The notes: generated by a model not told the origin, from the letters alone. A stretch of 32,715 bases of DNA from Jimgerdemannia flammicorona (GCA_003990765.1 RBNJ01000338.1:1-32715); one strand, 5' to 3'. Shown: positions 1,581-32,715, counted from the stretch's first letter. Numbers and translations are program-made.

Positions 1581-4010
1581 AACAGCATATTCTTTCAATA
1601 TGTCCTTCCAGGATTTGAATACTGATTCCTATATAGACTTACTTGACTTCTCGGTTGGAAACTATAGCTTCTTCAGCTACATACAGGTCATATCTAGCTG
1701 CTTTTTGACTTCCTTTGGTTGGGGCCTTGGCAGTTTGTCTTAACTTGATAAAGTCCAGTATTCTGGTAGTTAGGTTATTGAGGTAGTGCAGAGTAGTAAC
1801 AGTTGCTCATATTGCTGTTCGGGGTTTTCAGTTGGGGCAGACACTGGCCATATATTCTGTCTTTCAGTAATAGAAGTATGCTCTGTTTCTTTGAAGTTTA
1901 TTTCTTTCTCCTTCAGTGAGTTTTTTGAAGGTACTCAGCTGGGTGGATTCATAATTTCTGGGTGTCCATGAGGTGGATGTGGAGGGAGCTTGGGATGCTT
2001 CATACTTGGGTTCATCTTTCTTGGTCCAAGTCTTTTCCTTATTATTGAATTGTCTTTAGGGCAGAATTAGTCCAGCTATTAGGATTCACTTGACCATAGT
2101 CTTGATTCTTGGTAGACACCATTATTGGTGATCACAACCAACTGGGCAGCCTTGTTCACAGATTTTTCTAGTAGGCCATTCAGGTAGGGCATTGAATAAA
2201 TGGTCTGCTCTTGTACTATTTCATGCTTCATCATTGGCAATATATCCTAGACCAACAGTATTCAGGAGTGACTTGAGTTTTGTGCAGAAAGTTTTGAATT
2301 CTTCTTTGCCATATATATCAAATTTGAGGTTGCAGAGTTTTACTTGAGATTCAGTAATTACAGTTTCACTGTGGTATTGAGCAATCATGAGTTGTTTGAG
2401 TCCAGGGGCTGTAGGATGGACTCTATATCCTGGGGTATTATTTGCTATATTCTGAGTGACTACAGCAGGTCAGGTGTCTCATGTGAGGGGTTTTTCAGGA
2501 AGAGTTCACCACCATTCTTTGGCAGGTCCTTGGAAGAATGTAACAACTTGGTGGACATAGGCTGTAATTATAGCAAAGAGTTGTTCCAGAGTATGGTCTT
2601 GATTATTTGTTAGGAGGTGATCAGCAACTCACTCATTTGTCCATTGATTGGCTTCAAAGTTGGTGTCAACTTCACTAATGAAGCTTTGGACTTCTTGTGT
2701 AGTACCATTGAAGGTAGGTAGGCTTAGATTTTTTGTAGGTCAGATCTGTTCAGCTAAGGCAGTAATGGTTGCTGCCATTATTGCTACCTGGGCTGTGAGG
2801 TCTAGAATCTGTTAGTTCACCATGTTGTTTACTGGAGGTGATTGGACTGCTAGTAGTGGTGTTACTGATACTACTTAAGATACTGGTACAGAGTGTGAGG
2901 GTGTTCTTTGGGTCTATATAAGTTACTGGAGTAATAGTTGCAGGTCTGGAGTAAGAGCTTGATAGATAGCTATTTGTTGCTGTATAGGTATGTTCTGTTC
3001 TGATAGAGGTGCATCCCCTTCAGTAGTATATCTGGGATCAAATGTAGTACTTAGTACCTTGCTGAGTTGAAATATAGTTACATAGTACAAGTGTGATCTA
3101 ATATATCAAGAGATCATCTGACTGCTGAGTTAGTTCATAGTCATATTGTACAAGGCTAATCTAACTATACTATGACTGCTAAGCTATTTATAGATTTAGA
3201 TGCTGTCTGGTTAGTCTTTGATGACATCACTATTGATGACATCATCTCTGACAAAGTCTGAGCAGTTTTCTAACTTCTGATATCATCAGTTTCAAGGTAT
3301 CATTACTTCTATCTCTTGCAAGATTAAGGCTATCCTTGGTAGCAGTGGTTGTACATATAAGGATAACAGGTCTTGGTTCTCTTTTTTTTTGGCCTGCTGG
3401 CATATTTACAAGGACTGGCCATCTTTGTCTAGGGCAAGGGCTCCCAATGTCGCAGCTGGGGGTTCAAACCTCTCAGAAATAATATTTTCTATAATCTAAG
3501 GCAATTTCTAGTAGTAATATCTATCATATAGATGACTTGAGATTGGTTTTGACAATATCAGCTTTCTTGAGTTTAGATGAAGTATCCATCATTCTCTAAT
3601 GGAGGTGACATAGATAGAGCAAACAAAGTTGTTCAAATATGTTTTGCTTCTACTAAGTAATGAGGTCTTATATAGTCATGATGTATCTTGGTCTTGAGTT
3701 TGATAAGTGCAGTTTATGAACTCTTGATAGATGAGATAGTGTCCTTCTTGTCTCAGTTTGAGTTTGATACTTTTGGTTTCCTTTTGTAATAGTACCATAT
3801 ACCAAACTAGTTATAGAGGTTCAGAGTCAGTCTTATATAGTACTTCTTCTGGTATTCTTGTAGCTTAGCGGTGAGTTCTCATGCTTGCTAGTATATTTTG
3901 TGTAACCAGATAATCTCTTCAGTAACTTGTTTTGTTGTCTCGCATGTGGTTTCCAAATTGGTTCTGAGGATAACATGCAATTTTGGTGGCTTGGAGGTTG
4001 TGTGCTTACA
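1575..4010 (-). mobile_element. Ty3/Gypsy copy A, 5' part: partial 5' LTR (type B), internally deleted gag, N-terminal half of dUTPase
   Basis: 1581-3040 is colinear with ~30815-32280 (gag and dUTPase of copy D). 3043-4010 matches LTR type B; its TGTAAG terminus is seen as CTTACA ending at 4010. Confidence 0.92.
3043..4010 (-). repeat. LTR type B (5' LTR of copy A), 3' ~520 bp lost by deletion
   Basis: Matches 17503-17748 + 20982-21227 + 21660-22136, i.e. the empty-site version of the interrupted LTR of copy C. Confidence 0.9.
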
Positions 4011-5499: not shown

Positions 5500-7561
5500 T
5501 ATAAGTGTACAACTTCTAAGCCACAGAAATTACACATCACCCTCTGAATAAGCTACTGAAATCACATGCAACCTTTGAATAAATCTAGAAATCACATACA
5601 AGGTCACAAAGCTGAGTCAACATGAAGTCACAGCATACAAAGCTGAGTCAATACAAAGTCATGAAACACAAGATTTACACAAACTGAATCTTACCAATCA
5701 GGACCAAATGCATATATACCAAACATTGAGACATATTGAAATAGAGAACCAAAATAAACCAAACAAACAACTCCAACTCTTAAATATATACAAACATGAC
5801 CACTGAGATTTATAACTGCATCTATGCTGACATTTGGAATACCATTATCAACTAAGCCACACCCCCTCTATCTCTCATGAATATCCATAGCCTAGTACTG
5901 CTCTACTTCATAGAAGTCCAATGGAATGCTCTGAACATACTTAGTGAAGTCCACTAAATTAGACAAATCTCAAGCTACTACCAGATTGGCTGCCTTCTAG
6001 AAGATATAGTCAAACACCACCATAATATAGACATTACCCAGATGTCTCAACATCAGAAACTCATTGCTTGCAAACATCAAGAACTCTTCTATGAGTATAG
6101 TACTGTTATTTCCTGCCTCCGAGTCACTACCACTGAAATGGTTACTACTCTATCCTATGGCCAAATAGATGATATAATACAAGAACTCAACTATAAGTAC
6201 CTTGAGTACATTCAAACCACAGATAGAACCTTCCTACATCCTGATGACCATATCCTGCAAATGCCTCAAGTCAGATATACTATGAAGGATATCTATAATA
6301 TAATCTGATTTGATGAAGATGAAGCAGAAGACAATGATTCCTCTGACACTGATATGACCTCAAGCCAAGGATCCCTGCTAACCCTGATCACTCTACCAAC
6401 CTTTCTGATGAACTTATAATAGTTCATAACCACCTATGAAACTTATTGGGACAATGACCATTAGTATGAATACTAATCTGTGTTTACTCCTAATTACTTC
6501 AACTATAATGAAGAGACTGGAGAATACAATCTGTACCTTCAGACAACTCTTGAGATTGAACCAACCACCCCATCACCCAAGTATAAACAATATGAACCAC
6601 AGCTACCAGCTTACTACAATCCAGCAACTCATAGTACTGTAACTTATAGAAGATATGTAGACAGTGAATCTGATAAAAGTAAAGATGATATACCCCTCCT
6701 TTACCTACTAACATCTTACTCAGCATAGATGATGCTATTCTGTGGGATGGTGATGAAGTCCTAATATATTATTACCTCAGTAAACAAGGAGAGTTAATCT
6801 GTAAATAACTCTTCCTAGATGACTACTTCATCAGAGATGATGTCATAGATGGTGATATCATTGAAGACTACCCAAACAGCATCTAAATCTATAAATAGCT
6901 TAACAGTCATAGTATAGTTAGATTAGCTTAGTATAATATAACTATGAACTGACTCAGCAGTTAGATGATCTCTTGATATATCAGATCATACTTGTACTAC
7001 ATGACTGCATTCCAACTCAGCAAAGCACTAAGTACTATATCCATATTCAGCATAGTCTAGATAGCCCCTCACTTGTATAAATACCCCTTCCCTAGACCTC
7101 AGAATCTCAGACTCAAATACTCAAGAACACTCCTGATTACTTCTCCACAATACCCCTTCACACAACTACTCCTAGTATAGCAATATCATAAATAGCAAAT
7201 AAATCTATTTCATAACCCACAAATCACTCTTAAGTAAATTCACTCTCCATTAGGTCCCACTCCTAACCCTATTATAAATTTTTCTAATTGAGTATTGTCT
7301 GCAGCAATATGCCAATTCAACTAAGCTGGTCTTAGTTTCTTAAACTTCCTGAAATATGGAAAATCCTAAACATCCAGAACTAGTCCAAAAAAGGGACTTT
7401 GGTTGAGATATCATCTGATCTTAAAATCAATAAGCATAGAGGACATACTCTATATGAAATTAATCTCAACCTTAAGAGAATGGTCTTTCATAATATCTAG
7501 AACTTCTAGAAACCCCTTTCAGAACTATGTAACAGTTATCCTAACAAGTAACCCTCTTATA
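5500..7561 (+). repeat. LTR type A (3' LTR of copy B), ~2.06 kb
   Basis: Follows the PPT; termini TATAAG...CTTATA are mutated TGTAAG...CTTACA; colinear with 18249-20288 and 24731-26785. Confidence 0.92.
5796..6886 (+). pseudogene. LTR-encoded ORF, copy 1 (decayed; unknown protein)
   Basis: MTTEIYN...EDYPNSI* homologous to 18505-19602; several stops and small indels. Confidence 0.75.
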
Positions 7562-9547
7562 ATACTCATCTCTACACCCATCATCTCTATACTTTAGGAA
7601 TTTATAAGAAAAAGCAGCAAAAGGAAGCAAACTATTGTAGTTGAGATTCCATACTGATCAGGTTGTACAACTACCAATAATAAGGACAAAAACAAGACCA
7701 TACCTGTCACTTTCACTATTCTCACTATGGATGATAAGAGTGTAGATAACAGGAATATGGATGATAAGGATGGAAAATACAAGAATATGGATGATGAGGA
7801 TATAGAGAATAATAACAAGGATATGGATAATGATGATGAGTATATGGACAATAAGTTTATGAATAATGATGATGACAATGAATAATGACAATGATGAACC
7901 TCTACCTGACCTCTCTGCTTTTATATACCTCAAACACAAGAAGCCTTTTTACTCAAAGTCTGCTCTTCCTAAGTATTTCAGATCTATTCTTAAAGTCTTC
8001 AACCTCTTCTTCTCTGATGAGATACTAAAAATAATTGTTGCCAACATGAATCACTATACCACAATAAAGATAGAGGATTCTACAACTGATAGAGAGTAGA
8101 AGATTTTAACAGTACCTGAACTCCTTATCTTCATTGCTATTTGTATTTACTTCAGCCTTTTCTGCACTGAAGGAAGCCTCAAGTGGCAGTGGGATATAGA
8201 TCTCCAAAAGCCAAAACACTACATTCTTGAGTATATGTCTCTATTTTGCTTCCAACAAATCAAATGATTCCTTCATATTTCCCTATATAACATATATAAT
8301 AATGATTACTATATAGTGAAACTCAAGCCATTATTATCTCATATTCGAAAAATATCCCAAACAATATATTGACTAAGTTCCAATATGTCCATCAACAAGA
8401 TGATACAGTTCATGGGCAGAAGCTTACATACTTACTATATACAGTTTAAGCTGATCTCAAAGGGTTATAAGGTCTTTATATTATATGATCATGGTTATAT
8501 ATAGACATTCCTTCCAGATTAATATACTACTAAAAGCAAAGAGATAGAGAATAACAACAATAATAAGTTTGGTATAATAGCATGTACTATGATTTATCTA
8601 GTCAAATAATTATCTAAGACTCAAAGATTCAACATCTATATAGACAGATACTTCTCCAGTATTCCACTATTCAAATATTTATAATCGAAAAGAATTGGGG
8701 CATACAGAATAGTTAAAATAGATAGAACACAATTCCCAGAGAAACTCAAAATTAAATGTAGCAAAGAGAAAGAGCTCAACTAGAATATATTGTCAGGGGT
8801 GATCATTGATAATATTCTAGCATTACTATGAAAGGATACCTCTGTAGTCAAAATGCTAACTACTATCTATAAATTGCAAGGAGTAGAATGGAAAATCAAG
8901 TACAAATGATGATATCTGATAATAACCAAAGCTAACAAAACTCAAGTCTAAGCAATCTGGGAAAACAAATATTCTATAGATGTTGAGATTCTAAAGATTA
9001 TTAATAATTACAACCATTACATAGGAGGAGTCAACATTGCCAACCAACTCTAAGTATATTACTATACACAAATTAAAGCCAAAAGAAATTGGTAGCTGAT
9101 ATTCTTCTGGTTGTTGGATATTATAGTAATTAATTCATATCTTGTATACAAGACAGACAGGTCTAAGACTGACCACAAAATCTCCCAACTTGACTTGACT
9201 TAGGGCCTCATAATGCTAGTAGATAAGAAAGAAAAAGGAATGGAAATGAGAAAGATATACATGAAGAACAGATGCTATCAAACTCTAAATATCTAAAGAA
9301 CCTTCATATTACAAAAAATTCCTATGATTTAGATCCCTCTCGACTTCTTCCTAGTAACCATTTACCTACTATAAGAGACCAGCATGAGGCATACATATGG
9401 TGTCAGTCATAAGTAAAGACTGGCAAAATCACAATTAGCAAAAAGAACCCACCCCAGAGCAATATCATCTATCAAACATGCAATGCTATTCTTTGTCTGA
9501 ATTAAGAGCAAAACTGTTTTGTAGAATATCATACTCAGAAAGAATAG
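7562..9547 (+). pseudogene. piggyBac-family (DDE_Tnp_1_7 / PGBD-like) transposase relic; 5' end displaced by Gypsy copy B
   Basis: Acidic N-terminus; FNLFFSDEILKIIVANMNHY; ELLIFIAICIYF; MSLFCFQQIK*FLHI; FMGRSLH...KGYKVFILYDHGYI; IDRYFSSIPLFKYL; YNHYIGGVNIANQL (GGVDxxDQ); FFWLLDIIVINSY; C-terminal Cys-rich TCNAILC...CFVEYH. Stops and frameshifts present. Confidence 0.9.
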
Positions 9548-11833: not shown

Positions 11834-12196
11834 CCAAAAATATATATATCTTGAAATCTTAAGGATGCTGAGTATAAAGATGTTGAGGAATGTAAAAACA
11901 TTAGGAAGTATAAGGAAGCTTACAGCTTAAGGAATAGGGCATAGTTTATAGTAAAAAGTTATGAGGAGCATAATATTTGGAGGATTATTAGGAGTAATTG
12001 TAGATAACAAAGATTGCTAGAGAGAGTTGACTTTTTGCTTGAACCATTCAGAGCAAGCTAAGCCACACGGACATCTTTTCATGACAAGCAACACATTTTC
12101 AAGTTTTCCCATCATCTATTCTGGTGTATAAGGTGTGGCAGGAGTCTAGCTACAGCATACAATAAGTCTCATCTGTTTCGGTGGAGTTTTTGTCAG

Positions 12197-13949: not shown

Positions 13950-13961
13950 ACATTTATATTC

Positions 13962-16153
13962 ATGATGATGAACAGTCTACATATATTATCACTAAATGTC
14001 AATGATTTGCATGATGGAGTGAAGTGAAGGCATTTGTTTCAGTAGTTGAAGAACAGGAAGTATGATGTGGTATTTCTGCAGGACATTCAGGCCTATGGGG
14101 AGCAAGATTATGAGGAGTGGAGCAAGGAATGGTATAGTAGTACAGGGTGGAATGAGCAGGTGGGCATCTTGGTTGGCTTGGGGAGAGGAGAGCTGAAAGA
14201 GGTTGAGATATATAGTGATTGATTGATCTGGGGGAGATTGAAAGGAGGAGCTGGCAATGGATTGATGGTTGGCTCTGTGTATATATTGGCAGTTGGCAGG
14301 GAGCGAAACCAGTGGGTGGAAGGTTGGCTAGATTGGGGAGGCTGAGATAAGATTGGGCTGGATATTCTGGAAGGGGACTTCAACATGGTGCATGATAGGA
14401 CATTAGATAGATCGGATGATGGAGTCAGTGTGGTAGTATCCACTGGGCTCTCATGATGGCTTCAAGCTGAGAAGGAAATGAGATTGGTTGATGGAGTATG
14501 ACAACATTGTGGTGAGAAGTTAGGGCCATTTACTAGATGGCATCCGATTGGTGAGAATTTGGTTAGGATGAAGATTGACTGGATCCTAGTAGCAGAATAC
14601 TGGGGTAATATTTTGGATTCATCAGAGGTATGGTGGTGTCCCTGGTCAGATCACTGAGGTGTAGAGGTGTGTGGGAGATTCTAGGCAGCCAGTGGCAGCG
14701 GAGGCAGATGGTGACTTAATGTGGCACTACTCAAGAGACAGGTGGAGCAGGACAAGTTTGTTAAAATCGCAAGACAGGAAGTAGCATGGTGGAAGAACAG
14801 TAGCCAGTCAATAGCACAGTAGTGGGGAAAATTTAAACATCTAGCAGGTGCATATTGGCATAATGTAGGAGAGGTAGCTGGAAGAGAGCAGAAAGATAGA
14901 GAAAGGAGAGTGGAGCAGGGGCTTCACTGGTGGCTAAAACTTCTAGAAGGAGAGAATTCCTCAGGAGAACAACACTCTCTATTGATCAAGGAGGTGGCAG
15001 AGTTGTGGTCAGATTTGAAGGCAGCAGAAGATAGGGTGGTAGATGGGTTGCTGGCAAGATTGCGAGCAAAGCAGTTGGAAGAAGGAGAGCAACCCACCAA
15101 ATACTTATCTGGAATCTTGAAGGCTAGGAGAGTGTGGCACAGCTGGGCTTTGGTGTTATGAGAGGATGGAACAGAGGTGATGGATATTACAGATATGCTT
15201 GGGGAGATCTCTGGTCGATAGTACTCTCTATGGTAGGATGATGGAGGGCTGATAGAGAGAGAGGCAGCACTGGAGGATATCAACAATTTGGTTGGCAGCT
15301 GGCCAGTGGTGGTAGAGCCTGCAATTGGCAGAGCAGTAATGGGTAGGGTGACCCTTGAAGAGGTGTTGGAGGTTCTGAGGAAAGTGTAGGTGGGCTCATC
15401 ACCAGGGGAGGATGGACTGCCCTGGGAGTTCTGAAAGGAGTTTCAAACTGAGTTTGGGGCATGGCTCATGGAAATGGTAAACTTTATGCTGGGGGAAGGC
15501 TGCTGGATTGGCAATAGCTCCTTGGGACTAGTCTCTCTGCTCTATAAGGAGAAAGGGGACAGATGTGTGTGGCAGAACTAAAGGCCCATCATGTTACTGA
15601 ATATGGATAGGAAGTTGGTCTCCAAGATTCTGGCAGGGAGAATGCAACAATAGATTGGCAGATTGGTTGGTGAGGAACAGCAAGGGTTTGTGAAGGGGAG
15701 ACAGATTCGAGACAGTACAGCCTGGGTGCAAAATGTTTTGGAGGATTGTAGAAGCCAGCAAGTAGATGGAAGAATGGTGTTCTTAGACCAGAAAAAAGCT
15801 TATGACAGAGTGAGATGGAACTACTTGGAGGCAGTTCTATGGAAGGCTGGGTTTGGCATGGGGGAGGCTCAAAAACTGATGGGTCTGATGTGAGATTGCC
15901 AGGCTGCAGTGCTGATGAATGGGTGGAGTGGCCCGGAGTTTTTCTTAGGGTGAGGAGTGCCACAGGGGGATCCTCTCTCACCCCTGCTTTATATTTTATC
16001 TTTGGAGCCCTTGTTGGCATGGCTGAAGGGGAGGCTCACTGGGTTGAAGATGAGGGAGGTGGTCTGGAAGCTGGGGGCCTTTGTGGATGACATGGTGGTA
16101 GGGTTAGGCAGTGTGGAAGATGTGGCGAGCTTGCAGGAAGGGGTAGGACAGTA
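13962..16153 (+). pseudogene. LINE ORF2 5' part: APE endonuclease and RT up to just past the catalytic FVDD, cut at the inversion breakpoint
   Basis: SLNVN, VVFLQD, GDFN, KIDWIL, WSDH (APE); SPGEDGLP, PIMLLNMDRKLVSKIL, QQGFVKGRQI, FLDQKKAYDRV, PQGDPLSPLLY, AFVDD (RT). Confidence 0.95.
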
Positions 16154-17502
16154 GCCTAGTATTGAAAGGACTCTCAGTAGAAAGAGGAGTCATTGATGAA
16201 GATTATATAGACGAAATTATTATTCTCATCTGAAACCATAGTTGGACACCCTTCAAGATCCCCATTGGTTTCTGCATTATCTAGATTCTATTTAAGAAAA
16301 TCAAGTCAACTCTAACAGTCAAGGAAGTTCCTGAACTACTGCCTACCATTTGAGGATCCAAAGGATTTGGCTCATCAAACAAGGCCCCAGTCCAACCTAC
16401 TATGACCAAGGAAGAACAATTCTATAAAAAGATCAAAGATAGATATATACCAAGTAGCTGATGCCTCCATGGTATTGGAATATACTCTTCCTGAATGATT
16501 GATGATTGCTTCTCTTATGTCAATGAACTGGCTCAAAGAAGAACCAATAGAAGGAAAGCTCTTACAACCAAGATCACCATCATTGGATCAGACAAACTAC
16601 TTATACTTCAAGCTTTTGTCAACTGAGTATCTGTCAAGATTATGATAGACAGTAGTGTCTCAGGCAACTTCATCAATGACAAAACAGCCAATAGACTTAA
16701 GGTCTTTACCTCTCCAGTACAATAAACTCAAGCAGTTGCCACAGCTGATGGAACCTCACATGTTATTAGCAAGGAAGTCTGCAATCTGCCCTTCTGAATT
16801 GGTGACTACTGAGTATATAATACCCTCTAGATCATACCACTTCCTGACAATGAAATCATCCTTGGGACTCTATAGTTGAAACAAGAGAACCCTATGATTG
16901 ATTGGGTAAACCATTTTCTGACCATTAAGAAAGAATGCTACAACTTCAAACTGCAAGATGAAAAAGACACACTCAGTTCTAGTGACCCTGGATCAAGGAT
17001 CACCCACATCAATAAGCTACAGCTTAAAAAATTGGCCAAGAAATGTCCTCTCTTTGCCATCTCTATCTGTCCATCCAAAGAAGAACAAGAACTCTGAAGA
17101 AAACTTTTCCAAAGTTGATAGCCATATTAGACCCTTACTCTAGAAAGTCTGAGACACATTTTTGAACCAAACCACAGAACCATCTGCACCTGTCATTATC
17201 AATGACTAAGAAGAGTATGAAGTTGAACAAATCCTCAATAAACATAGTCACAAGAACTATCCAAATGGTACAACAACACTAGAACAAATTAGAAGGCCCT
17301 GACAAGGACATCGAAAGCTAAGAAGGAGAGAGTTGTAAGCGCACAACCTCCAAGCCACCAAAATCACATATTATCCCTAGAATTAATTTGGAAACCACAT
17401 ATGAGACTACAAAACAAGTTACTGAAGAGATTATCTGGTTATACAAAATATGCCAGCAAATATGAGAACCTACTATCAAGACACAAGAATACCAAAAGAA
17501 GT
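16148..17502 (+). mobile_element. Gypsy copy A, 3' part: C-terminal half of dUTPase, protease, deleted RT-RH-IN, chromodomain stub, PPT and first 169 bp of 3' LTR (type B)
   Basis: SSLVLKGLSVERGVIDEDY, GSKGFGSS (dUTPase); MIDSSVSGNFI (protease); jump at ~17160 to EEYEVEQIL; jump at ~17262 to the 3' region; PPT 17320-17333; TGTAAG at 17334. Confidence 0.92.
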
Positions 17503-18504
17503 TGTAAGCATACAACCTCCAAGCCACCAAAATTGTATGTTATCTTCAGAACAAATTTGGAAACCACATGCAAGACTATAAAACAAGTTACTGAAGAGAT
17601 TATCTGGTTACACAAAATATGCCAGCAAGCATGAGAACCCACTGCCAAGATACAAGAATACCAGAAGAAGTACTATAACCATAAGACTGACTCTGAACCT
17701 CTATAATTAGTTTGGTATATGGTACTATTACAAAAGGAAACTGAAAGTTAGCTCCTTTCTCTGCTACCTTACCAATCACAAGGTTTGGTAGGCAACCTTC
17801 CAAGTCCCCTTTCCCCTAATATTACCCCCTCTACCTTGGGTTGGTTTGCTGTGCCTGCAGGGGCATGGTGGGAGGAGGGCAATGGTGATGAGTTGCCCCT
17901 TTATCAGTGTCAGATCGGTACTTCCTCCACTTTTTCGCATATTCTGGTGCCTTCCGCTGCATCTGGGGTATACCCATTTTGGTGCAGTGCCTTCTTCCTT
18001 TTGCCATCGCCAACAAGGAGTTGTCTTGGTATGTCTCGGGCTACGTAGAGAGTCGGCCAACCTTGGGCATCAAGTGCTCAGTATAGGTTACCTGCAGGTC
18101 CTCGGTGCCTGTGGTGGGGCCCTCTGGCTTTGGCAAGCTTCCCGGCGAGCGCAGTTCTGGCATAGGTGACTGCTTTTCGGGTGTTGTCGGGATGGGAGGG
18201 GAGATGGCCATCACAGATAGGCAGAAGGGTGATTACAGTGATCAGTAGTGTAAGCACACAATCTCCAAGCCACCAAAATTATACGTGACCTCCAAACAAA
18301 TCTGGAAATCACCTGCTTGATCACAAAGCTAAGTCAAACTGAAGTCACAGTGCACAAAGATGAGTCAATATGAAGTCATGGAACACAAGAATTACATAAA
18401 TGGAATCTTACCAATCAGGACCAAATGCATATATACCGAGCACCAAGACGCATTGAATCAGAGAACCAAAACAAATAACAACTAGAACTTCCAAACACAC
18501 AAAC

Positions 18505-19602
18505 ATGACCACTGAGATCTACAACCATATCTGCACTGACATTTGGAATGCCATTGTCAACCGAGCCACACCCTCTCTGCCCCTTATGAATATCCATAGC
18601 CTGGCACCCCTCTACTTCGTGGAAGCCCGATGGAATGCTCTGAACATGCTTAGTGAGGCCTACTGAATCAGACAAATCTCAAGCTACTACCAGATTGGCC
18701 GCCTTCTGGAAGACATGGTTGAACACCACCATGATACAGATATTACCCAGATGTCTCGACACCAGAAGATCATTGCCTGCAAACATCGAGAACTCTTCTA
18801 TGAGTACAGTACCATTATTCCCCACCTCTGAGTCACTACCAGCGAAATGGTTGCTACCCTGTCCTATGGCCAAATCAATGACATGATACAAGAACTCAAC
18901 CACAAGTACCTCGAGTACGTCCAGACCACAGACAGAACCTTCCCATACCCTGATGACCATATCCTGCAAATGCCCCAAGTCAGATACGCTATGAAAGATG
19001 TCTATGATATAATCCAGTTCGATGAAGATGAAGCAGAAGACAACAATCCCTCTGACACCGATATGACCTCTAGCCAAGAACCTCTGCCAACCCTGATCAT
19101 ACTGCCAACCTTGTCGATGAACTTACAACAGTTCATAACCATATACGAGACTTATTGGGACAATGACCACTGGCACGAATACCAACCTGCATTCACCCCT
19201 GATTACTTCAACTACAATGAAGAGACCAGAGAACACAACCTGTACCTCCAGACAACTCTCGAGATTGAACCAACCACCCCACCACCTGAGTATGAGCGAC
19301 ATGAACCACAGTCGCCAGCTTACTACAATCCTGCAACTCATAGTACTGTAACCTATAGAAGGTATGCAGACAGTGAATCCGACGAAAGTGAAGACAATAC
19401 ACCCATTCTTTGCCCACTAACACCTTATCCAGCCTACGAGACAGATGATGCTATTCTGTAGGATGGAGATAAAGTTCCAATGTATTATTACCTTAGTGAA
19501 CAAGGAGAAGTAATCCATGAACCATTATTCTTAGACAACTATTTCATCAGAGATGATGCAATCAATGGTGATATCATCAAGGACTACCCAGACAGCGCCT
19601 AA
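18505..19602 (+). pseudogene. LTR-encoded ORF, best copy (365 codons, 3 internal stops, no frameshift; unknown acidic protein)
   Basis: ATG 18505 to TAA 19602 in one frame; each internal stop is a sense codon (CAA, CGA, TGG) in another LTR copy. Confidence 0.82.
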
Positions 19603-19791
19603 ATCCATAAATAGCCTAGCAGTCATAGTATAGTTAGATTAGCTTTGTATGACGTGACTGTGAACTGACTCAGCAGTCAGATGATCTCTTGATATGTCAG
19701 ATCACACTTGTACTATGTGACTGCATTCCGACTCAGCAAAGCACTTAGTGCTACACCCATATTTAGCATAGTCCAGATAGCCCCTCACTAG

Positions 19792-19930
19792 TATAAATAC
19801 CCCCTCCCCCAGACCTCAGAATCTCAGACTTGAACAGACTCGAATACACAAGAACATTTCTGAATACTTCTCCACAATATCCCTTCACACAACTACTCCT
19901 AGTATAGAAATATCATGAATAGCAAATAAA
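19792..19930 (+). promoter_or_regulatory. Putative LTR TATA box (TATAAA 19792) and poly(A) signal (AATAAA 19925)
   Basis: Both motifs are conserved at equivalent positions in all four complete LTR 3' halves. Confidence 0.6.
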
Positions 19931-21227
19931 CCTATTCCATAACCCACAAACCACTCTTAAGTAAATCCACTCCCTATTAGGTCCCACTCCTAACCCCATT
20001 ATGAAATTTCCTAATTGGGTATTGTCTGCAGTGATATGCCAATTCAACTAAGCTGGTCTTAGTATCTTGAACTTCCTGAAATATGGGAAATCCTGAACAT
20101 CCAGAACTAGTCTGAAAAAAGACTTTGGTTGAGATATCAACCCAATCTTGAAATCAATAAGCATAGAGGACGTACTCCATATGAAATTGATCTTGACCAT
20201 AAGAAAACGGTCTTCCAGAATATCCAGAACTTCCAGAAAACTCTTCCAGAACTATGTAATGGTCACCCTAAAAAGTAACCCTCTTACAAGTAGGGTGCCA
20301 GGCTGGGGGCGGTCATTGGGGCTAGGGCAGATGCTGCTTTGGTGGGGCCTTTTGATTGGTGTGGCATGGTTAGGTAGTAGGTGTCACTATCGGCTTCTTT
20401 TGGCGGTCAGCGGGGTTGGGCCCCAGTCATCAGGGGGGGTCGGGAGGCCTGAGGCTACCTATTTCAGGCATCTTGGCTGTACTCAACTGGAACCGAGAGC
20501 TGACACAGCAATGTGATCGAGGCCCACAGGCTTGAGTAGTGGGGTATTGGGGGTTTCCTCCCACCTCACATGTAAGTCCTTTACTTACCTCAACTGAGAG
20601 AACCAGGCCCTACCCACTATGTTGTGCTTTGATGAGGGTTTTTATTTGCCTGTCATTCTCTTTGGGGTGGCAGGGGCTATTCTATTCGGCTCGGGCATAG
20701 TCTTGTACATATGTTGGGTTCTCAGGCATGCGCTTTCAGTCATTCGTGTATGGTTGGGTTTCCCCTGGTAGTAGGGAGAGCATGGTGTGCAGAATGAGGT
20801 GCGAGCTTATCAGCCCTGCTGCATCTAGCCTGCTGGACAATAGCTAGCCTAGGTTAATAGGGGGGCAGTGCTTGGTGGGTGGTGGGGGAGGGTTTTGGCC
20901 TATATAGTCTAGGTTCTCTTCCAATAAAAATCTGCAGGACATGAGTCCGTTAAACAAAAAAAAAAAAAGGAAACTGAAAGTACCAAAATCAAACCAAGAC
21001 AAGAAGAACTCTATCTCATCCATCAAAAGATTTATAAACTGCACTTATCAACTCAAGACCAAGATATACTGTGATTATATAAGACCTCATTACTTAGTAG
21101 AAGCAAAACACATTTAAACAACTCCATTCACTCTATCTGTGTCACCTCCATTGGAGAGTAACAGATGCTTCATCTGAACTCAAGAAAGCTGACATCGTTG
21201 AAACCAATCTCAAGCCATCCATATGAC

Positions 21228-21651
21228 TAGTGCTCCCAAATGAGTCAAATCAATTCAAATTGAATTGAATTGAGGGTTAAATGAGTCAAATCGAATTGGG
21301 GATTTTTCCATTTGAATCAATTCGAATCAAATCAAAAGTCAAATCAAATTGAGGGTCTGATTCGAATCCTAATTTTCAAATTGCAATAACTCAGCATAAA
21401 CTCATCCAAATCTAACATACTTTAGCTTGTTAGAATCACATTAATACAGTGAATCTAACAAGCTAAAATATGTTAAATTTGGATGGGTTTTCGTCGAGTT
21501 ATTACATTTTGAAAATTAAGGTTTGAATTGAACTTTGAATTGAATTGGATCTTTGATTTGATTTGAATTGAATCGAATTGGACCCTTGATTCAATTGAAT
21601 CGAATCGAGTTTGGGCCAAATTTGATTTGATTTGATTTGTTGGGAGTACTA
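21228..21651. mobile_element. hAT-type MITE, 424 bp, fold-back structure
   Basis: TIRs TAGTGCTCCCAA / TTGGGAGTACTA; 8-bp TSD CATATGAC (21220-21227) / CACATGAC (21652-21659); subterminal pentamer arrays; empty site at ~3523-3530 (-). Confidence 0.9.
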
Positions 21652-22660
21652 CACATGACTGATATTACTACTAGAAATTGCCTTGGATTACAGAAAATAT
21701 CATTTCCAAGAGGTTCAAACCCCCAGCCATAACATTGGGAGCCCTTGCTCTAGACAAGAATGGCCAGTCCTTGCAAATATACCAGCAGACTAAAAAAAAA
21801 GAGAACCAAGATCTGTTATCTTTGTAAAACCACTGCCACCAAGGACAGTCTTAATCTTGCAAAAGATAGAAGTAATGATACCCTTGAAACTGATGATGTC
21901 AGAAGTCAGAAAACTGCTCAAACTTTGCCAGCAATAATATCATCAATAGTGATGTCATCAAAGACTAACCAGACAGCATATAAACCTATAAATAGCTTAG
22001 CAGTCATAGTATAGTTAGATTAGCCTTATATAACGTAACTGTGAACTGACTCAGTAGTCAGACAATCTCTTAATATATCAGATTACACTTATACTATGTG
22101 ACTGCATTCCGATTCAGCAAGGCACTAAGTGCTACATCCATATCTAGCATAGTCCAGATAGCCTCTCACTAGTATAAATTCCCTCTCCCCCAGACCTCAG
22201 AATTTCAGACTTGAACACACAAGAATAATTCTGAATACTTTCCCACAATATCTCTTTATACACTACTCCTAGTATAGCAATATCATGAATAGTGAATAAA
22301 TCTATTTAATAATCTACAAACTATCCTTAAATAAATCTGCTCTCCATTAGGTCCCACTTCTAACCCCATCACAAAATTTCCTAATTGGGTATTGTCTGCA
22401 GTGATATACCAATTCAACTAAGCTGGTCTTAGTTTCTTGAACTTCCTGAAATATGGAAAATTCTGAACATCCAGAACTAGTCCAAAAAAGAACTTTGGTT
22501 GAGATGTCAATCTGATCTTGAAATCAATAAGTATAGAGGATGTACTCTATATGAAATTAATCTTGACCATAAGAAAATGGTCTTCCAGAATATCCAGAAC
22601 TTCCAGAAAACCCTTCCAGAACTACATAATGGTTACCCTAAAAACAACCCTCTTACAACT

Positions 22661-24730: not shown

Positions 24731-26785
24731 TGTAAGAGGGTTACTTTTAGGGTAACTGTTAGGTAGTTCTAGAAGGGTTTTCTGGAGGTTCTGGATATTC
24801 TGGAAGACTGTTTTCTTATGGTCAAGATCAATTTCATATGGAGTACATCCTCTATGCTTATTGATTACAAGATTGAGTTGACATCTCAACCAAAGTCTTT
24901 TTTTGGACTAGTTCTGAATGTTCAGGATTTTCCATATTTCAGGAAGTTCAAGAAACTAAGACCAGCTTAGTTGAATTGGTATATCGCTGCAGACAATACC
25001 TAATTAGGAAATTTCGTGCCGGGGTTAGGAGTGGGACCTAACAGAGAGTGGATTTACTTAAGAGTGGTTTGTGGGTTATTAAATAGGTTTATTCGCTATT
25101 CATGATATTACTATACTAAGAGTAGTTGTGTAAAGGGATATTATGGGGAAGTATTCAGGAATGTTCGAGTCTGAGATTCTGAGGTCTGGGGGAGGGGGTA
25201 TTTATACTAGTGAGGGGCTATCTGGACTATGCTAGATATGGATGTATCACTAAGTACTTTGCTGAGTCGGAATACAGTCACATAGTACAAGTGTGATCTG
25301 ACATATTAAGAGATCATCTGACTGCTGAGTCAGTTCACAGTCATGTCATACAAGGCTAATCTAACTACACTATGACTGCTAGGCTACATATTTATGGGTT
25401 TAGGCACTGTCTGGATAGTCCTTGATGACATCACCATCGATTGTATCATCTCTGATAAAGTAGTCATCTAGGAATAATAGCTCATGGATTACTTCTCCTT
25501 GTTCACTGAGGTAATAATACATTGGAACTTCGTCTCTATCCCACAGGATAGCATCATCTGTCTCGTAGGCTAGATAAGGTGTTGGTGGATGAGGGATGGG
25601 TATATTGTCTTCACTTTCATTGGATTCGCTATCTGCGTACCTTCTATAGGTTACAGCACTATAAGTTGCAGGATTGTAGTAAGCTGGCGGCTGTGGTTCA
25701 TGTCACTCGTACTCAGGTGGTGGAGTGGTTGGTTCAATCTCAAGAGTTGTCTGGAGGTACAGGTTGTGTTCTTCAGTCTCTTCGTTATAGTTGAAGTAAT
25801 CAGGGGTAAATACAGATTGGTATTCATATCAGTAGTCATTGTCCCAATAAGTCTCATATATAGTTATGAACTATTGTAAGTTCATTGGCAAGATTGGCAG
25901 AGTGATCAGGGTTGGCAGAGATCCTTGGCTAGAGGTCATGTTGGCGTCAGAGGGATCATTGTCTTCTGCTTCATCTTCATCGAAGTGGATTATATCATAG
26001 ATGTCCTTCATAGCATATCCAACTTGGGGCATTTGTAGGATATGATTATTGAGGTGTAGGAAGGTTCTGTCTATGGTTTTGACATACTTGAGATACTTGT
26101 GATTGAGTTCTTGTATCATATCATCAATTTGGCCATAGGACAGGGTAGCAACCATTTTACTGGTAGTAACTCAGAGGTGGGGAATAATGGTACTATACTC
26201 ATAGAAGAGTTCTCGATGTTTGCAGGCAATGAGCTTCTGGTGTTGAGACATCTGAGTAATGTCTGTATCATAGTGGTGTTTGACTATGTCTTCCAGGAGG
26301 CAGCCAATCTGGTAGTAGCTTGAGATTTGTCTGATTTGGTGGGCCTTGCTAAGCATGTTCAGAGCATTCCATCGGGCTTCCACAAAGTAGAGGGGTGCTA
26401 GGCTATGGATATTCATGAGGGGTAGAGAGGGTGTGGCTCAGTTGACAATGGCATTCCAAATATCAGCGCAGATGCAGATATAGATCTCGGTGGTCATGTT
26501 TGTGTGTTTGGAAGTTGTGGTTGTTGTTTGTTTTGGTTCTCTGATTCAACACATCTTGGTACTCAGTATATATACATTTGGTCCTGATTGGTAAGATTCT
26601 GTTTGTATAAACCTTGTATTCTGTGACTTCATATTGACTTAGCTTTGTGTACTATGACTTCAGTTTGACTCAGCTTCATGATCAAGCAGGTGATTTCCAG
26701 ATTTGTTCAGAGGTCACATGTGTTTTCCATAGCTTATTCAGAGGGTGACATGTAATTCCGGTGGCTTGGAGGTTGTACACTTACA
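24731..26785 (-). repeat. LTR type A (3' LTR of copy D), 2055 bp
   Basis: TGTAAG/CTTACA termini; reverse complement of 18249-20288. Confidence 0.95.
25400..26497 (-). pseudogene. LTR-encoded ORF, copy 3
   Basis: Homologous to 18505-19602 (MNIHSLAPLYFVEARWNALNML..., MVATLSYGQIDDMIQELN...). Confidence 0.78.
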
Positions 26786-26925
26786 ACTCTCCCCTTCTTA
26801 GCTTTTGACATCCTCATCAGGGCCTTCTAATTTTGTTCTGCTGAGTTCTTGGTTTGGTTTGCAATAATTATAATGTTCAGGAGGATAATATATAGTATGT
26901 ACAGATAGGTGTGGAGTATTTCGTT

Positions 26926-29900
26926 CTAGTTGTTTAAGGAATCATATTCCTGAACTAGGTTGGTAGCATTCCAGAGATTGGTCTTGGGTTCCCAGATTGC
27001 ATCATAGATCGGGTAACCTTTCCATTTGACAAGGTACTCAGGATGGTTCTTATTGCTACATTTGTTGAGGATTTGTTCAACTTTATACTCTTCTTGGTCA
27101 TTAATAATGACAGGTGCAGGTGGTTTGGTGGTCCAGTTTGGAAATAGCTCATCATCACTGTCATTGTATCGCTTGAGACATTGAACATTAAAGACTGGGT
27201 GAATCTTAATGATGTCTGGTAGTGCCAGTTTGTAGGAGGTTGGAGAGACTTGTGCAATAACTTCAAATGGTCCAATGAACTTACTGTTCAGCTTTGTAGA
27301 TGGTCTGTACTTGAGGTTGTCAACTCGGTATCCTCTGATATCTAGTAGAACTTTTTCTCCAATATCAAAAGTTTCTTCTTGGCGGTATTGGTTAACATAC
27401 TGTGATTGTTGTTCTTGAGCTCGCGACAAATTCTCAATGGCAATCTGGCTTAAATTGTGCATTCGAAGTAAGAATTCTTCAACAGCTTCGACTGTGGAGG
27501 GTTCTTCAGTGGTTCGGATAAGTATCAATGGGGTGTTTGGATTTTGTCCAGTATTGGCAAAGAATGGGGTCATTCTAAGAGAGGCTTGTTTGCTATTGTT
27601 ATAGGCAAACTCGACTGCGGTAAGATGTTTGTGCCAATCATCTTGTCTATAGGAAACATAGTTTCTTAGTATTTGTTTCAGAGTTCGGTTCATTCTTTCA
27701 GTTTGGCCATCAGTTTCTGGGTGAAAGGCTGTGGATAGTGCAAGTTTGTTCCAAGGTGTATATGGAGGGCTTTCCAAAAGTGGCTGGTGAATTTCAGGTC
27801 TCAGTCACTAATAATGATCTTGGGAAGACCATGATAGCGGAAGATATTGTCAAACAAGAGTGTGGCTATGTCTGGTGCTGTTGCAGTAGTGGTAGTAGGC
27901 ACAAAGTGGGCTTGTTTGCTGAGATAGTCCACAAAGACAATGATTGCATCTTTCCCATTCTTGGTTTGAGGTAGTTGTACAATAAAGTCCATAGAGATTT
28001 GTTCCCAATTTGTGGATAGTACTGGGATAGGGTGGAGTAAGCTGGGTTTTGCTAGTGTTGAGGACTTGTTTCGTTGGTAGACATTACAGAGTGATATAGG
28101 TTTTGAGCTAATCTGCCATTCGGGGCCAGTAGAAGTTTTGGGAGATAACTTCATAACATTTATCAAATCCTAAATGTCCAGCTGTAGGAGCATCATGACA
28201 TTTGAATAGGATAGTCCTTCGGAGGTCTCGGTTGTTTGGGACATATAGTCTGTCCTTGTAGTAGATAGCATTGTCCTTAAGTTGATATTGGTTATACTGG
28301 GTATACTTATCAGTATCATCACTGTTCAGGATTTCTCGGAGTACTTGAGCTTCTTTATCATCAACACATGCTGCGATGATTTGTTCCATGATAGTGTTGG
28401 TAACTAAGGTCAGAGTTTGGATAACCTCTTTGATTGGTGGTCTGGAGATTGCATCAGCAATAATATTTTCCTTGCCAGGGTGGTACTGGATTTCATAGTC
28501 AAAGTTGGTGAGGACTTTCATCTATCTGGCTTGCTTTTGGGAAAGGGTAGCCTGTGTCTTGATGTTGACTAATGACTTGTAGTCAGTCAATATAGTGAAG
28601 TGTGCTCCTTCTAGATATGGTCACCATTTGATCAGAGTGTCTACATATGATGACTAGCATTTCCTTCTCATGAGTTGCATAGTTGATTTCGGCATCATTG
28701 AACTTGCAGGAGTGATAGGCCACAGAGTGTCCTTCTTGCATGAGTACTGCTCCAAGGGCTAGGTCAGAGGTATCAGTGGTAACTTCATATAGTAAGGTGG
28801 GATTTGCCGCTTGAAGTACTGGAGTGGTTATCAGGACATCTTTCAGTACTTGGAAGGTGGTATCTTGCTCGGGTCCCCAATTTACAAGATTGTTGAAGTC
28901 TTTCTCTTGTTTCATGGTCCAGGATTGTTCTTGTTTCTTACTGTGCTTGGTCATTTGGGTGAGGGCGGTAGTGATTTTAGCAAAGTTGGCAACAAATCAC
29001 CTGTAATAGTTTGCTAATCCTAGGAATGACTGGAGGTCTTTCAACTTTTTGGGTCTGGGCCAATCCTTGATTGCAGAGATTTTGCTGGGGTCCACTTTGA
29101 TTCTATTTAGAGTGACAATGTGTCCAAGGAATTGAATTTCTTTCAGGAGAAATTTGCACTTACTGAGTTTTGCAAAGAGTCGGTTTTCTTGGAGTTTCAG
29201 TAGTACTAGTTCAAGGTGTTCAAGATGTTCCTCCAGGGTTTTGCTGAAGACTAGGATGTTGTCAATATAGACAACAATGAATTTGTCCAGATATGGATAC
29301 AGAATGGTATTCATCAGTTTCTGGAATGTTGCTGGAGCATTAGTTAAGCCAAAGGGCATAACCAGGAACTCAAAGTGTCCATAGCAAGTTTGGAAAGCTG
29401 TCTTGTAGATGTCTTCTTCTTTTATAGCAATTTGCCAGTAACTATTTCACAGGTCAAAAGAGCTCATGAATTGTGGGTTGGTGAGCCTATCAAATATTTC
29501 ATCAATCCTTGGTAGTGGGCAATAGTTCTTGATGGTCTGTTCATTGAGATTGCAGTAGTCAATGCACATTTGTAGGTCTCCTCCTTTCTTGACAACGAAG
29601 AGGACTGGTGCACCATAGGGTGATATGCTGGGTCTGATGAATCCTTGTTCTAGGAGTTCGTCGATTTCCTTCTTGAGTATATCAATTTCTCTCGGAGACA
29701 TATGGTAGATTGACTTGAAGGCTGGTTTGGCATCTGGAATAGTCTTGATTGCATGGTCTACTGCTCGTTTAGGAGGTAGGCCTTTCGGGAGCTTCTTTGG
29801 GAATATGTCTTGGAATTTCTGGAGTAGTAGTCTAACATGGCTGTCAACTTTGGAAAAATCTTCTTCAGAGTTCTCGGGTTCTCCTTTGGATGGTCGGATA

Positions 29901-30370
29901 GAGATGGCGAAGAGAGGGCATTTCTTGGCCAATTTCTTGAGTTGTAGCTTGTTGATGTGGGTGATCTTTGGTCCAGGGTCACTAGAATTAAGTGGGTCCT
30001 TTTCACCTTGCAGTTTGAAGTTGTGGTGTCCTTTCTTGATGGTCAGAGAATGGTTTACCCAATCAATCATGAGGTTCTCTTGTTTTAACCATGGAGTTCT
30101 AAGAATGATTTTATTGTCAGGAAGTGGTATGATTTGGAGGGTAACATGTACTCAGTAGTCATCAATTCAGAAGAGTAGATTGTGGACTTCTTTGCTAATA
30201 ACATGTGAGGTTCCATCAGCTGTAGCAACTGCTTGAGTTTGCTATACTGGAGAGGTGAAGACCTTGAGTCTGTTGGCTGTCTCTTCATTGATGAAGTTGC
30301 CTGAGGCACCACTGTCTATCATAATCTTAACAGGTGCTCCATTGATAAAAGCCTTAAGGGTGAGCAGTTT
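26926..30370 (-). pseudogene. pol: pol: aspartic protease, RT, RNase H, integrase, chromodomain
   Basis: MIDSGASGNFI; GFIRPSISPYGAPVLFVVKK; MPFGLTNAPATFQ; VYIDNIL (YIDD); TDTSDLALGAVL, NYATHEKEML; CHDAPTAGHLG, FYWPRM; ISMDFIVQLP; AFHPETDGQTER; GPF; EEYKVEQIL...YLVKWKGY...WEP. Confidence 0.96.
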
Positions 30371-30586
30371 GTCTGATCCAATGGTGGTGATTTCAGTTGT
30401 AGGAGCCTTTCTTCTATTGGTTCTTCTTTGAGCCAGTTCATTGATACAAGAGAAGCAATCATCAATCATTTGAGAAGAATACATTCCAATACCATGAGGG
30501 CATCAGCCACTTGGTATATATCCATCTTTGATCTTCTTGTAGAATTGTTCTTTTTTGCTCATGGTAGATTGGGCTGGGGCTTTGTT

Positions 30587-30990
30587 TGATGAGCCAAATC
30601 CTTTAGATCCTCAGATGGTAGGCAGTAGTTCAGGGACTTCCTTGACTATCAGGGTTGACTCGATTTTTTCAAATAGGATCTGGGCGATGCAGAAGCCAAT
30701 AGGGATCTTGAAGGGTGTCCAACTGTGGTTTCGAATAAGAATAATGATTTCACCTATATAATCTTCATCAATGACTCCTCCTTCTACTGAGAGTTCTTTT
30801 AGTGCTAGACTACTATGACAGCATATTCTTCCAACATGTCCTTCAGGGATTTGGATGCTGATTCCTGTATAGACTTGTTTAACTTCTCAGTTGGAAACTG
30901 TAGCTTCTTTGGCTATATACAGGTCATATCCAGCTGCCTTTTGACTTCCTTTGGTTGGGGCCTTAGCAGTTTGTCTTAACTTGACAAAGT
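30587..30990 (-). pseudogene. dut: Trimeric-type dUTPase domain between the Gag zinc knuckle and protease
   Basis: All five motifs in order: AAGYDL, GRICCHSSLALK, GGVIDEDYIGEI, IAQIL, *GSKGFGSS. Confidence 0.95.
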
Positions 30991-32715
30991 CTAGTATTCT
31001 GGTGGTCAGGTTGTTGAGGTGGTGAAGAGTGGTAACAGTTGCTCATGTTGCTGTTTGGGGTTTTCGGTTGGGGCAGGCACTGGCCATGTGTCCTGTCTTT
31101 TGGCAATAGAAGCATGCTCCACTTCTTTGAAGTTCATTCCTTTCGCCTTCAGTAAGTTTCTTGAAGGTACTGGGCTGGGTGGGTTCAGGATTTCTGAGTA
31201 TCCAAGAGGTGGATGTGGAGGGAGCTTGGGATGCTTCATGCTTGGGTTCTTCTTTCTTGGTCCAAGTCTTTTCTTTGTTGTTAAATTATCTTCAGGGTAG
31301 AATTGGTCCAGCTATTAGGATTTGCTTGATCATGGTCTTGATTCTTGCCAGGCACCATTGTTGGTGATCACAACCAACTGGGCGGCCTTGCTCTTGGATT
31401 TTTCTAGTAAGCCATTCAGGTAGAGCATCAAATAAATGGTCTGCTCTTATACCATTTCATGTTTCATTATTGGCGATGTATCCTAGGCCAACAGTGTTCA
31501 GGAGTGACTCGAGTTTTATACAGAAGGTTTCAAATTCTTCTTTGCCATATACATCAAATTTGAGGTTGTGGAGTTTTACTTGAGATTCAGCAATCATGGT
31601 TTCGCTGTGGTATTGAGCAATCATGAGTTGTTTAAGTCCAGGGGCTGCAGGATGGGCTCCATATCCTGGGGCATTATTTGCTGCATTCTGGGCAACTACT
31701 GCAGGTTGGGTATCCTATATGAGGGGGTTTTCAGGAAGGGTTTGCCACCATTCTTCGGCAGGTCCTTGGAAGAATGTAACAACTCAGCGGACATAGGCTA
31801 TAGTTGTAGCAAAAAGTTGTTCCAGAGTGTGGTCTTGATTGTTTGTCAGAACGTGGTCAGCAACTTGCTCATTAGTCCATTGATTGGCTTCGAAGTTAGT
31901 GTCAACTATACTAATGAAGCTTTGGACTTCTTGTACAGTACCATTGAAGGTAAGTAAGCTCAGATTTTTGGTAGGTCGGGTCTGTTCAGCTAAGGCAGTA
32001 ATGGTTGCTGCCATTATCGCTATCTGGGCTGTGAGGTCTAGAATCTGTTGGTTCACCATGTTGTTTACTGGAGGTGGTTGGACTGCTGGTAGTGGTGTTA
32101 CTGGTACTACTTGAGGTACTGGCGCAGAGTGTGATGGGGTTCTTTGGGTCTGTGTAAGTTGCTGGAGTAGTAGTTGTAGATCTGGAGTGAGGGCTTGATA
32201 GATAACTGTTTGTTGCTGTGTAGGTGTATTCTGTCCTGATGGAGGTACTTCTCCTTCGGTAGTATATCTGGAATCGAATTCACTGAGATACTCCTTCTCT
32301 TCTTCAGTTTGATCTCCATGTAATTGGGTTTGCTCGGCATCAAAGTAGACAGAATCAGTTATATATCTGATTTCAGACGGACTTAATTCAAAGTCAAGTT
32401 CAGGTTTGGTATTGGTTTCAGATTCAGGTGGGCTGTAGCAGGGCCTGCTTCAGGTTTGGGGTCAGGTAGTTGATGAAGGGTTTCTCTTGCTTCTTCCTTA
32501 AGAATATGGCAGGCCTTGCTGTTCTGGAATTGGTAGTATAATGCGGTCTTAGTCCTGGTATAGTGAAAGTCAGTAGAGTTGAGCCACTTGGCTACAGAGG
32601 CTTGGGCTTCATGAGGAACTAAGGCTAGAAATACTGCTGCTGGTTGTCCTAGGTCGCTTGGATTTGTGGAGCTAACAAAACTCTTATTGAGAAGAGTAAA
32701 GAGTGACTATAAAAA
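30991..32715 (-). pseudogene. gag: gag of copy D with CCHC zinc knuckle (31073-31114)
   Basis: CFYCQKTGHMASAC; MVNQQILDLTAQIAIMAATITALAEQ coiled-coil-like segment; colinear with ~22970-24690. Confidence 0.88.

Follow-up and report, generated by a model that had tools for sequence, protein, structure and literature searches.

A 365-codon frame inside the LTR of a dUTPase-bearing chromodomain Ty3/gypsy family is probably a formerly intact accessory gene

Genes that reach into the LTR are known from retroviruses. MMTV sag is a superantigen ORF located in U3 of a betaretrovirus LTR, and lentiviral nef as well as spumavirus tas/bet are 3' accessory genes overlapping U3, whereby spumaviruses use an internal promoter. 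The frame described here, found in LTRs of a chromodomain Ty3/gypsy family, resembles sag in being ~300-plus codons long and in lying wholly inside the LTR, upstream of promoter elements. It would hence be present in both LTRs and would not be needed for reverse transcription itself. Unlike sag, it shows no sequence or family similarity to that gene, and it is carried by a chromodomain retrotransposon that lacks an envelope and probably belongs to a soil fungus. With nef and tas/bet it would share the position at the 3' end/U3 that is typical of an accessory regulator, provided that it acts as one, and a CCAAT/TATATA block in front of it resembles the internal-promoter logic of spumaviruses. 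Those genes, however, only overlap the LTR, whereas the frame reported here is entirely inside, and no homology to them is detected. Comparison with Pfam, with PDB sequences and, by Foldseek on a low-confidence model, with PDB structures does not place the product among the retroviral U3 accessory proteins (Sag, Nef); the likeness to U3 genes is therefore one of position and not of family membership. For a precedent of the MMTV type, the accessible text of PMC9412291 uses the phrase 'LTR contains an ORF'.

Outside retroviruses, described additional ORFs of the Retrosat2 kind lie in the internal region. In the rice elements Retrosat2, RIRE3 and RIRE8 an ORF0 is located between the 5' LTR and gag (PMC3485330, accessible text), and the phrases 'in the LTR', 'within the LTR' and 'inside the LTR' do not occur in the accessible portion of a review on additional ORFs (aORFs; PMC7264820). 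As far as these texts go, aORFs such as Retrosat2 ORF0 are similar in being lineage-restricted orphan ORFs beside gag-pol which evolve faster than pol and are found in some relatives only. Unlike them, the present gene is inside the LTR itself and not in the internal region, and thus survives in solo LTRs. An aORF of the Ogre/Retand/Retrosat2 type was considered and rejected, as the LTR encloses the ORF, with the start 255 nt into the LTR and 687 nt still following the stop (values for copy A2, see below). Fungal chromoviruses with a dUTPase domain, some of them with an 'additional ORF with unknown function', are described in the accessible text of PMC2864245, which also reports, for some fungal elements, a dUTPase between the gag zinc knuckle and the protease. 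Judged from that text, the backbone is the same as the one found here (gag zinc knuckle, dUTPase, PR, RT, RH, INT, chromodomain). The additional ORF of those elements is comparable by description only, its position and its kinship to our gene lying outside the accessible text, and this bears on novelty. A literature search of partial coverage, without subscription journals or Repbase entries, gave no report of a protein gene inside the LTR of a non-retroviral LTR retrotransposon. An LTR-internal gene of 365 codons is unusual for a chromovirus-type element.

In the window, i.e. the whole stretch of 32,715 nt that was analysed, self-blast shows decayed copies of a single chromodomain Ty3/gypsy family nested in one another. 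Its features are summarised in Table 1.

Table 1. Position of LTRs, reading frames, domains and candidate signals within the window.
Feature	Position	Strand	Remarks
A1, type-A 3' LTR of truncated plus-strand element E2	5500..7562	+	
A2, type-A solo LTR, 2039 bp	18251..20289	+	TGTAAG...CTTACA termini, read from the sequence
A3, type-A 3' LTR of minus-strand chromovirus E4	24731..26785	-	
ORF copy in A1	5796..6886	+	8 internal stops, 7-bp deletion near 6725
ORF copy in A2, 365 codons + TAA	18505..19602	+	stops at codons 54 (TGA), 109 (TGA) and 319 (TAG); no indel
ORF copy in A3	25400..26497	-	5 internal stops, no indel
Two ~29-nt direct repeats with TGAGTCA-type sites	18325..18385	+	upstream of ORF; alignment, motif scan
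CCAAT (18411) + TATATA (18430) block	18403..18436	+	candidate ORF promoter
Main LTR TATA box TATAAATA	19792..19799	+	in LTR part common to types A and B
AATAAA, only one in LTR	19925..19930	+	candidate poly(A) signal for genomic RNA and ORF mRNA
Type-B LTR, 5' LTR of deleted element E1	3042..4010	-	
Type-B LTR, interrupted	17334..22658	+	primer-binding site TGGTAGCAGCAG directly after
E4 internal region	26786..32715	-	Pfam, self-blast; broken by stops and shifts; 5' LTR beyond window
dUTPase domain (PF00692, 9.7e-20)	30611-31042	-	between zinc knuckle (31043-31285) and protease (30242-30502)

The LTRs of the family come in two types. Type A is ~2.05 kb long and present in three copies, which were found by blastn of the A2 LTR against the window (5550-7562, plus strand; 24731-26717, minus strand), the outer ends being then read from the sequence. 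The solo LTR A2 is flanked on both sides by the 5-bp target site duplication (TSD) AGTAG (18246-18250 and 20290-20294). A3 has the same termini as A2, and those of A1, a copy with heavy C>T/G>A mutation, are changed to TATAAG...CTTATA. The polypurine tract AAAGCTAAGAAGGGGAGAG directly precedes A1, and a polypurine tract likewise adjoins the start of A3 directly upstream. From the TG..CA ends and the TSD of the solo copy together with the polypurine tracts abutting A1 and A3, the ORF is very probably located inside the LTR. Its place between the LTR 5' end and the main TATA box means that a copy is carried by each type-A LTR, 3' and solo LTRs included. Within the window type A occurs only in 3' position or as a solo LTR, a type-A 5' LTR is not present, and no element has both of its LTRs. 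We thus infer from the replication model and the solo LTR that a type-A element carries the ORF in both LTRs.

The earlier note had described the same ATG-to-TAA frame upstream of the LTR TATA box in all three type-A LTRs, the TSD-flanked solo LTR among them, and our coordinates agree. So do the motif positions, by which the ORF of this chromodomain Ty3/gypsy element falls inside the LTR and precedes the main TATA box. Its statement that the three stops of A2 read CAA, CGA or TGG in other copies is exact: codon 54 is TGA in A2, CAA in A3 and TAA in A1, codon 109 is TGA in A2 and A3 and CGA in A1, and codon 319 is TAG in A2 and TGG in both other copies. Taken over the three copies there are 11 distinct internal stop positions, each of which is sense in at least one other copy of the window. 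The stop codons are one or two C>T/G>A steps away from a CAA, CAG, CGA, TGG or CCA of another copy. An open ancestral ORF, as proposed in the note, is borne out in that all 11 positions are sense not only in another copy but also in one of two natural relatives (P0004 or P0003). The gene had moreover been expected to be left behind in solo LTRs, and the frame is indeed present in A2. All three copies in the window are dead, disabled by RIP-like C>T mutation, and the gene was probably intact formerly.

Searches of 5.8 billion clustered proteins and of 1.84 billion representatives revealed only two true relatives. P0004, a JGI 'hypothetical protein' of 128 aa, covers codons 1-128 with 86% identity. 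It starts at the same Met (MTTEIY), is open and has R at codons 20, 54 and 109, where window copies carry stops. P0003 (247 aa, from ENA) covers codons 115-364 with 64-65% identity and 82% positives. It is open as well, has the same C-terminal end and, where the remaining eight stops occur in window copies, reads Q, W or P; its alignment needs only two gaps of two residues each, both in frame. By a rough Poisson estimate 5.8-7.2 stops would be expected in 247 unconstrained codons at the divergence of P0003, and the probability of finding none is 0.0008-0.003. Both relatives are fragments, derived from contigs of 1180 bp (P0004) and 998 bp (P0003), and among the relatives recovered no intact full-length natural copy is seen. 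Further word-index protein searches returned the same two and no other relative, and scans of metagenome and viral contigs for the DNA of the relatives found none. Two further hits of the search in the 1.84 billion representatives, P0005 and P0006, are long repeat proteins with matches of ~40 residues each and were set aside as spurious.

Next to the natural relatives, the alignment of the three LTR copies itself bears on whether the frame is a gene. All six frames of this alignment were evaluated by one rule, a codon column being counted as open if at least one copy is sense. The ORF frame then runs for 381 codons, the other five for 58, 68, 80, 80 and 147. Gap blocks are found once in the 1098 ORF columns vs nine times in the 920 other LTR columns (Fisher p=0.007). 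Most differences between the copies are transitions dominated by C>T/G>A, with A1 being most and A2 least affected. The mutated C is mostly followed by A (82/152 in A1, 46/60 in A3, 20/35 in A2), CpA making up 38% of the available C sites. Where A2 alone seems to have changed from T to C, many cases are probably due to parallel C>T hits in A1 and A3. The RIP-like C>T noise arose after insertion and is thus without information on selection; transversion columns are the cleaner signal. Of these the ORF has 19, a small sample, with 12 at third codon positions (p=0.007) and 8 synonymous in every background (14.1% expected, p=0.003). The replacements caused by transversions are mostly conservative (L/I, L/V, T/S, Q/K, F/L). 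Transitions between A1 and A2 distribute as 59/34/72 over the codon positions. Based on these sequence comparisons the frame is with high probability a real, selected gene. The three copies and the protein relatives, rather than a formal dN/dS, show a gene that was apparently kept open under purifying selection while the family diversified. Taken together, the reading as a gene in the LTR appears well supported.

DNA contigs of four runs, soil-metagenome runs included, span the whole stretch. In the case of X1, 6258 pieces could be placed, 665 of them at ≥99% identity. None of the 12 indels listed (37 in all) is inside the ORF, and four are just 3' of its stop. The X1 contig depth is 738-1069 in the ORF part, 298-700 in the internal bins (27030-31000) and 2018-2409 in the shared R-U5 part, a kind of depth that cannot rank the parts. 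It is compatible with an ORF in the LTRs and with a second LTR type, and we do not lean on it.

The backbone of the family is best seen in E4. Its order from 5' to 3' is gag zinc knuckle, dUTPase, protease, RVT_1, RNase H, integrase, Tf2-type SH3 and Chromo. Pfam supports RVT_1 (1.5e-24), RT_RNaseH_2 (3.4e-22), Integrase_H2C2 (3.4e-13), SH3_Tf2-1 (3.7e-17) and Chromo (1.3e-13), and rve stays below the cut-off (6e-4). Having RT, RNase H and integrase together with a C-terminal chromodomain, E4 is a chromovirus. The internal regions beside type-B LTRs are 86-88% identical to E4 and the one beside A1 is 83% identical; we therefore consider them as one family with two LTR forms.

Types A and B share the first ~70-90 nt, including the TGTAAGC start, and a 3' part that begins with the last ~18 codons of the ORF. 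In the interrupted type-B LTR this 3' part extends for ~730 nt to the LTR end. In the type-B LTR of E1 (4010-3042) it is only ~210 nt long, a deletion cutting it off before the TATA box, and ~660 nt of other sequence between the shared parts take the place of the gene body. A long frame is not found in the type-B-specific sequence, where runs are of 26-93 codons. One weak match of 106 nt (68%, E 4e-4) joins the promoter region of type A to type B. In the window type B serves as 5' LTR twice, and one type-B LTR is also found in 3' position after an internal region. The gene is not a fixed feature of this chromovirus family, as type B keeps only its last ~18 codons. The retained ORF tail suggests that type B may derive from an ORF-bearing ancestor. 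Type-B LTRs of the same family do without the gene body; hence the gene is dispensable in cis.

The type-B copies are themselves rearranged. E1 (1-4010, minus strand) has a deletion of ~1.26 kb by which gag is fused directly to the type-B 5' LTR at a point shortly before the TATA box; R, U5 and the primer-binding site are lost. In the interrupted copy at 17334-22658 the LTR start is duplicated in tandem over 169 nt (17331-17668, 86% identity), and there are two inserts. One (17749-20964, plus strand) is GC-rich (~50%), has a 3' A-run and a 17-nt TSD (17732-17748/20965-20981) and hosts A2. By these sequence hallmarks it resembles a non-LTR retroposon. C>T mutation has hit it far less than the surrounding DNA, and none of its ORFs has a Pfam match. 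The other one (21227-21654) is a MITE-like insert of 428 bp with long inverted repeats in its interior (21310-21578 matches itself in reverse) that is not in the other type-B copy. Among AT-rich repeats, positions 12000-16000 have ~50% GC with a skew of G over C of +0.37 to +0.49 and long frames on both strands, without Pfam match.

The arrangement of signals in the LTR determines how the gene could be read. The ORF ends 190 nt upstream of TATAAATA. The motif scan finds just two TATA[AT]A sites in the LTR, at 18430 and 19792, the first being 75 nt before the ATG. The segment 18403-18427 is among the three longest blocks that are invariant in all three copies. Further upstream, TGAGTCA sites are intact once in A2 (18361), twice in A1 and once in A3; we take TGA[CG]TCA to be a bZIP (Gcn4/AP-1-type) site. 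The CCAAT/TATATA block ~75 nt ahead of the start codon suggests that the gene may be driven by a promoter of its own, a tentatively favoured proposal that is built on consensus motif matches. Such a promoter would consist of the TGAGTCA repeats, CCAAT and TATATA, with the 3' end of the mRNA provided by the single AATAAA of the LTR, and each type-A LTR would then represent a self-contained transcription unit of ~1.5 kb. The assignment to U3 is likewise based on motif positions; given that a second TATA precedes the ORF, a very long R could in principle include it.

The composition of the product fits the prediction of the earlier note, which had seen a helical N-half and an acidic, Tyr/Pro-rich C-half. 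A low-confidence AlphaFold model (pLDDT 31 with a 4-row alignment, 51 for P0004 alone) predicts about five helices in residues 1-140, and the C-half has a pI of 4.05 with 21% D+E, 9.6% Y and 10.5% P. Conserved blocks are common to P0001 and P0003. The PPPEY motif pointed out in the note is present in A2 and A3 and is replaced in A1 (PSPKY) and P0003 (PLSEY), thus it is not conserved. The note had recognised no motif, and neither a family nor a fold emerged from our searches of Pfam, PDB and ESM Atlas and with Foldseek. Up to an E of 5, Pfam gives no family for P0001, P0003 or P0004, and P0002 has one sub-threshold match (DUF5338). The best match of the PDB sequence profile is only at E 0.14, and in ESM Atlas P0003 has no usable match and P0004 weak ones below the recognition bar. 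Foldseek, which the note had recommended, finds no match in PDB at E<=0.001, a null that means little with P0004 as the model (pLDDT 51). Using tblastn, a similarity of the ORF to gag, pol or other sequence of the window is not found beyond the LTR copies.

In summary we favour a genuine, formerly intact accessory gene in the LTR of the type-A subfamily of this dUTPase-bearing chromodomain Ty3/gypsy family, and assign a probability of roughly 0.7 to this reading. The product would have an N-domain of five helices, followed by a C-half that is acidic, rich in Tyr, Pro and aromatics and probably disordered. It may serve the element in trans as a regulator or adaptor, either by activation of LTR transcription or by countering host silencing. 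The activating role is a rather improbable guess, and the anti-silencing role, raised in the note as a possibility, is an outright improbable one. If the product acts in trans, the persistence of ORF-less type-B elements of the same family would be explained.

As to how the gene is expressed, the main alternative is that it might lack a promoter of its own and be read from the 3' part of the element RNA via a spliced or subgenomic mRNA, with solo LTRs being silent. This is a possibility of some weight, though well short of even odds: every full-length transcript has at its 3' end the LTR part with the ORF, the promoter motifs are no more than matches to a consensus, and MMTV sag and lentiviral nef are precedents. 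What speaks against it is that CCAAT and TATATA stand at a promoter-like distance and belong to the best-conserved non-coding stretches of the LTR. A more far-reaching version of the accessory gene, which we regard as speculative and rather unlikely, would make each type-A LTR an autonomous gene with enhancer repeats, CCAAT/TATA, ORF and poly(A) signal, the product either transactivating the LTR or antagonising host silencing or RIP. Each insertion would double it, solo LTRs would still supply it once the element is gone, and type-B elements would exploit it. The doubling at each replication would follow from the standard model of reverse transcription.

The first TATA box might instead be the true promoter of the element, so that the ORF would be a 5'-proximal 'ORF0' cistron upstream of gag within a very long R. 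There are two TATA[AT]A boxes, the upstream one accompanied by CCAAT and TGAGTCA repeats, and extra ORFs upstream of gag are on record, e.g. Retrosat2 ORF0 (PMC3485330, accessible text). Nevertheless R would have to be ~1.5 kb in this case, whereas TATAAATA is in the region common to types A and B, as expected of a shared promoter, and the AATAAA 130 nt after it yields a normal short R. We therefore consider the ORF0 arrangement improbable.

Slightly further down ranks a passenger, that is a host gene or fragment captured in the LTR of one subfamily, without service to the element and open only since it is young. Type-B LTRs manage without the gene, and it resembles neither gag, pol nor any other element protein (tblastn), both of which would suit a captured sequence. 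On the other hand, the 1.84 billion representatives hold no cellular homologue, the four hits being the two LTR-gene fragments and the two spurious repeat proteins. Moreover, a relative of ~65% identity has stayed open up to the same stop, which points to long maintenance, and synonymous changes are in excess. A passenger is thus quite unlikely.

Very unlikely is a wrong delimitation of the LTR, by which the ORF would be an internal 3' gene in the place of env, with just the ~730 nt common to both types forming the true LTR. Its appeal comes from the window, where type A is only 3' or solo and type B is 5' twice. It is at odds with the TG..CA ends and 5-bp TSD of A2, which enclose the ORF, with the polypurine tracts of A1 and A3, which adjoin the TGTAAG start ahead of the ORF, with the same TGTAAGC start in type-B LTRs and with the type-B LTR in 3' position after an internal region. 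Finally, a chance frame in an A/C-rich LTR, opened by picking sense codons across copies, is likewise very unlikely even though the element sense strand is poor in T and G and hence has fewer stops and the permissive rule favours openness, as the same rule opens no more than 147 codons in any of the five control frames and 26-93 in type-B pieces, P0003 and P0004 are open as found, and codon positions and indels are asymmetric.

The accessory gene in the type-A LTR matters since LTRs of retrotransposons are normally taken as purely regulatory DNA. LTR-borne ORFs are masked along with the LTR in genome annotation and may therefore be under-reported. With a selected gene lying entirely inside the LTR, a solo LTR would be more than a promoter remnant, namely a potential stand-alone gene present in hundreds of copies. 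ORF-bearing and ORF-less LTR types on similar elements offer a natural comparison for the role of the product. Such a gene would give LTR retrotransposons outside retroviruses a layer of accessory regulation like that of sag, nef or tas and, if true, a retrovirus-style regulatory gene would have evolved independently in a fungal chromovirus.
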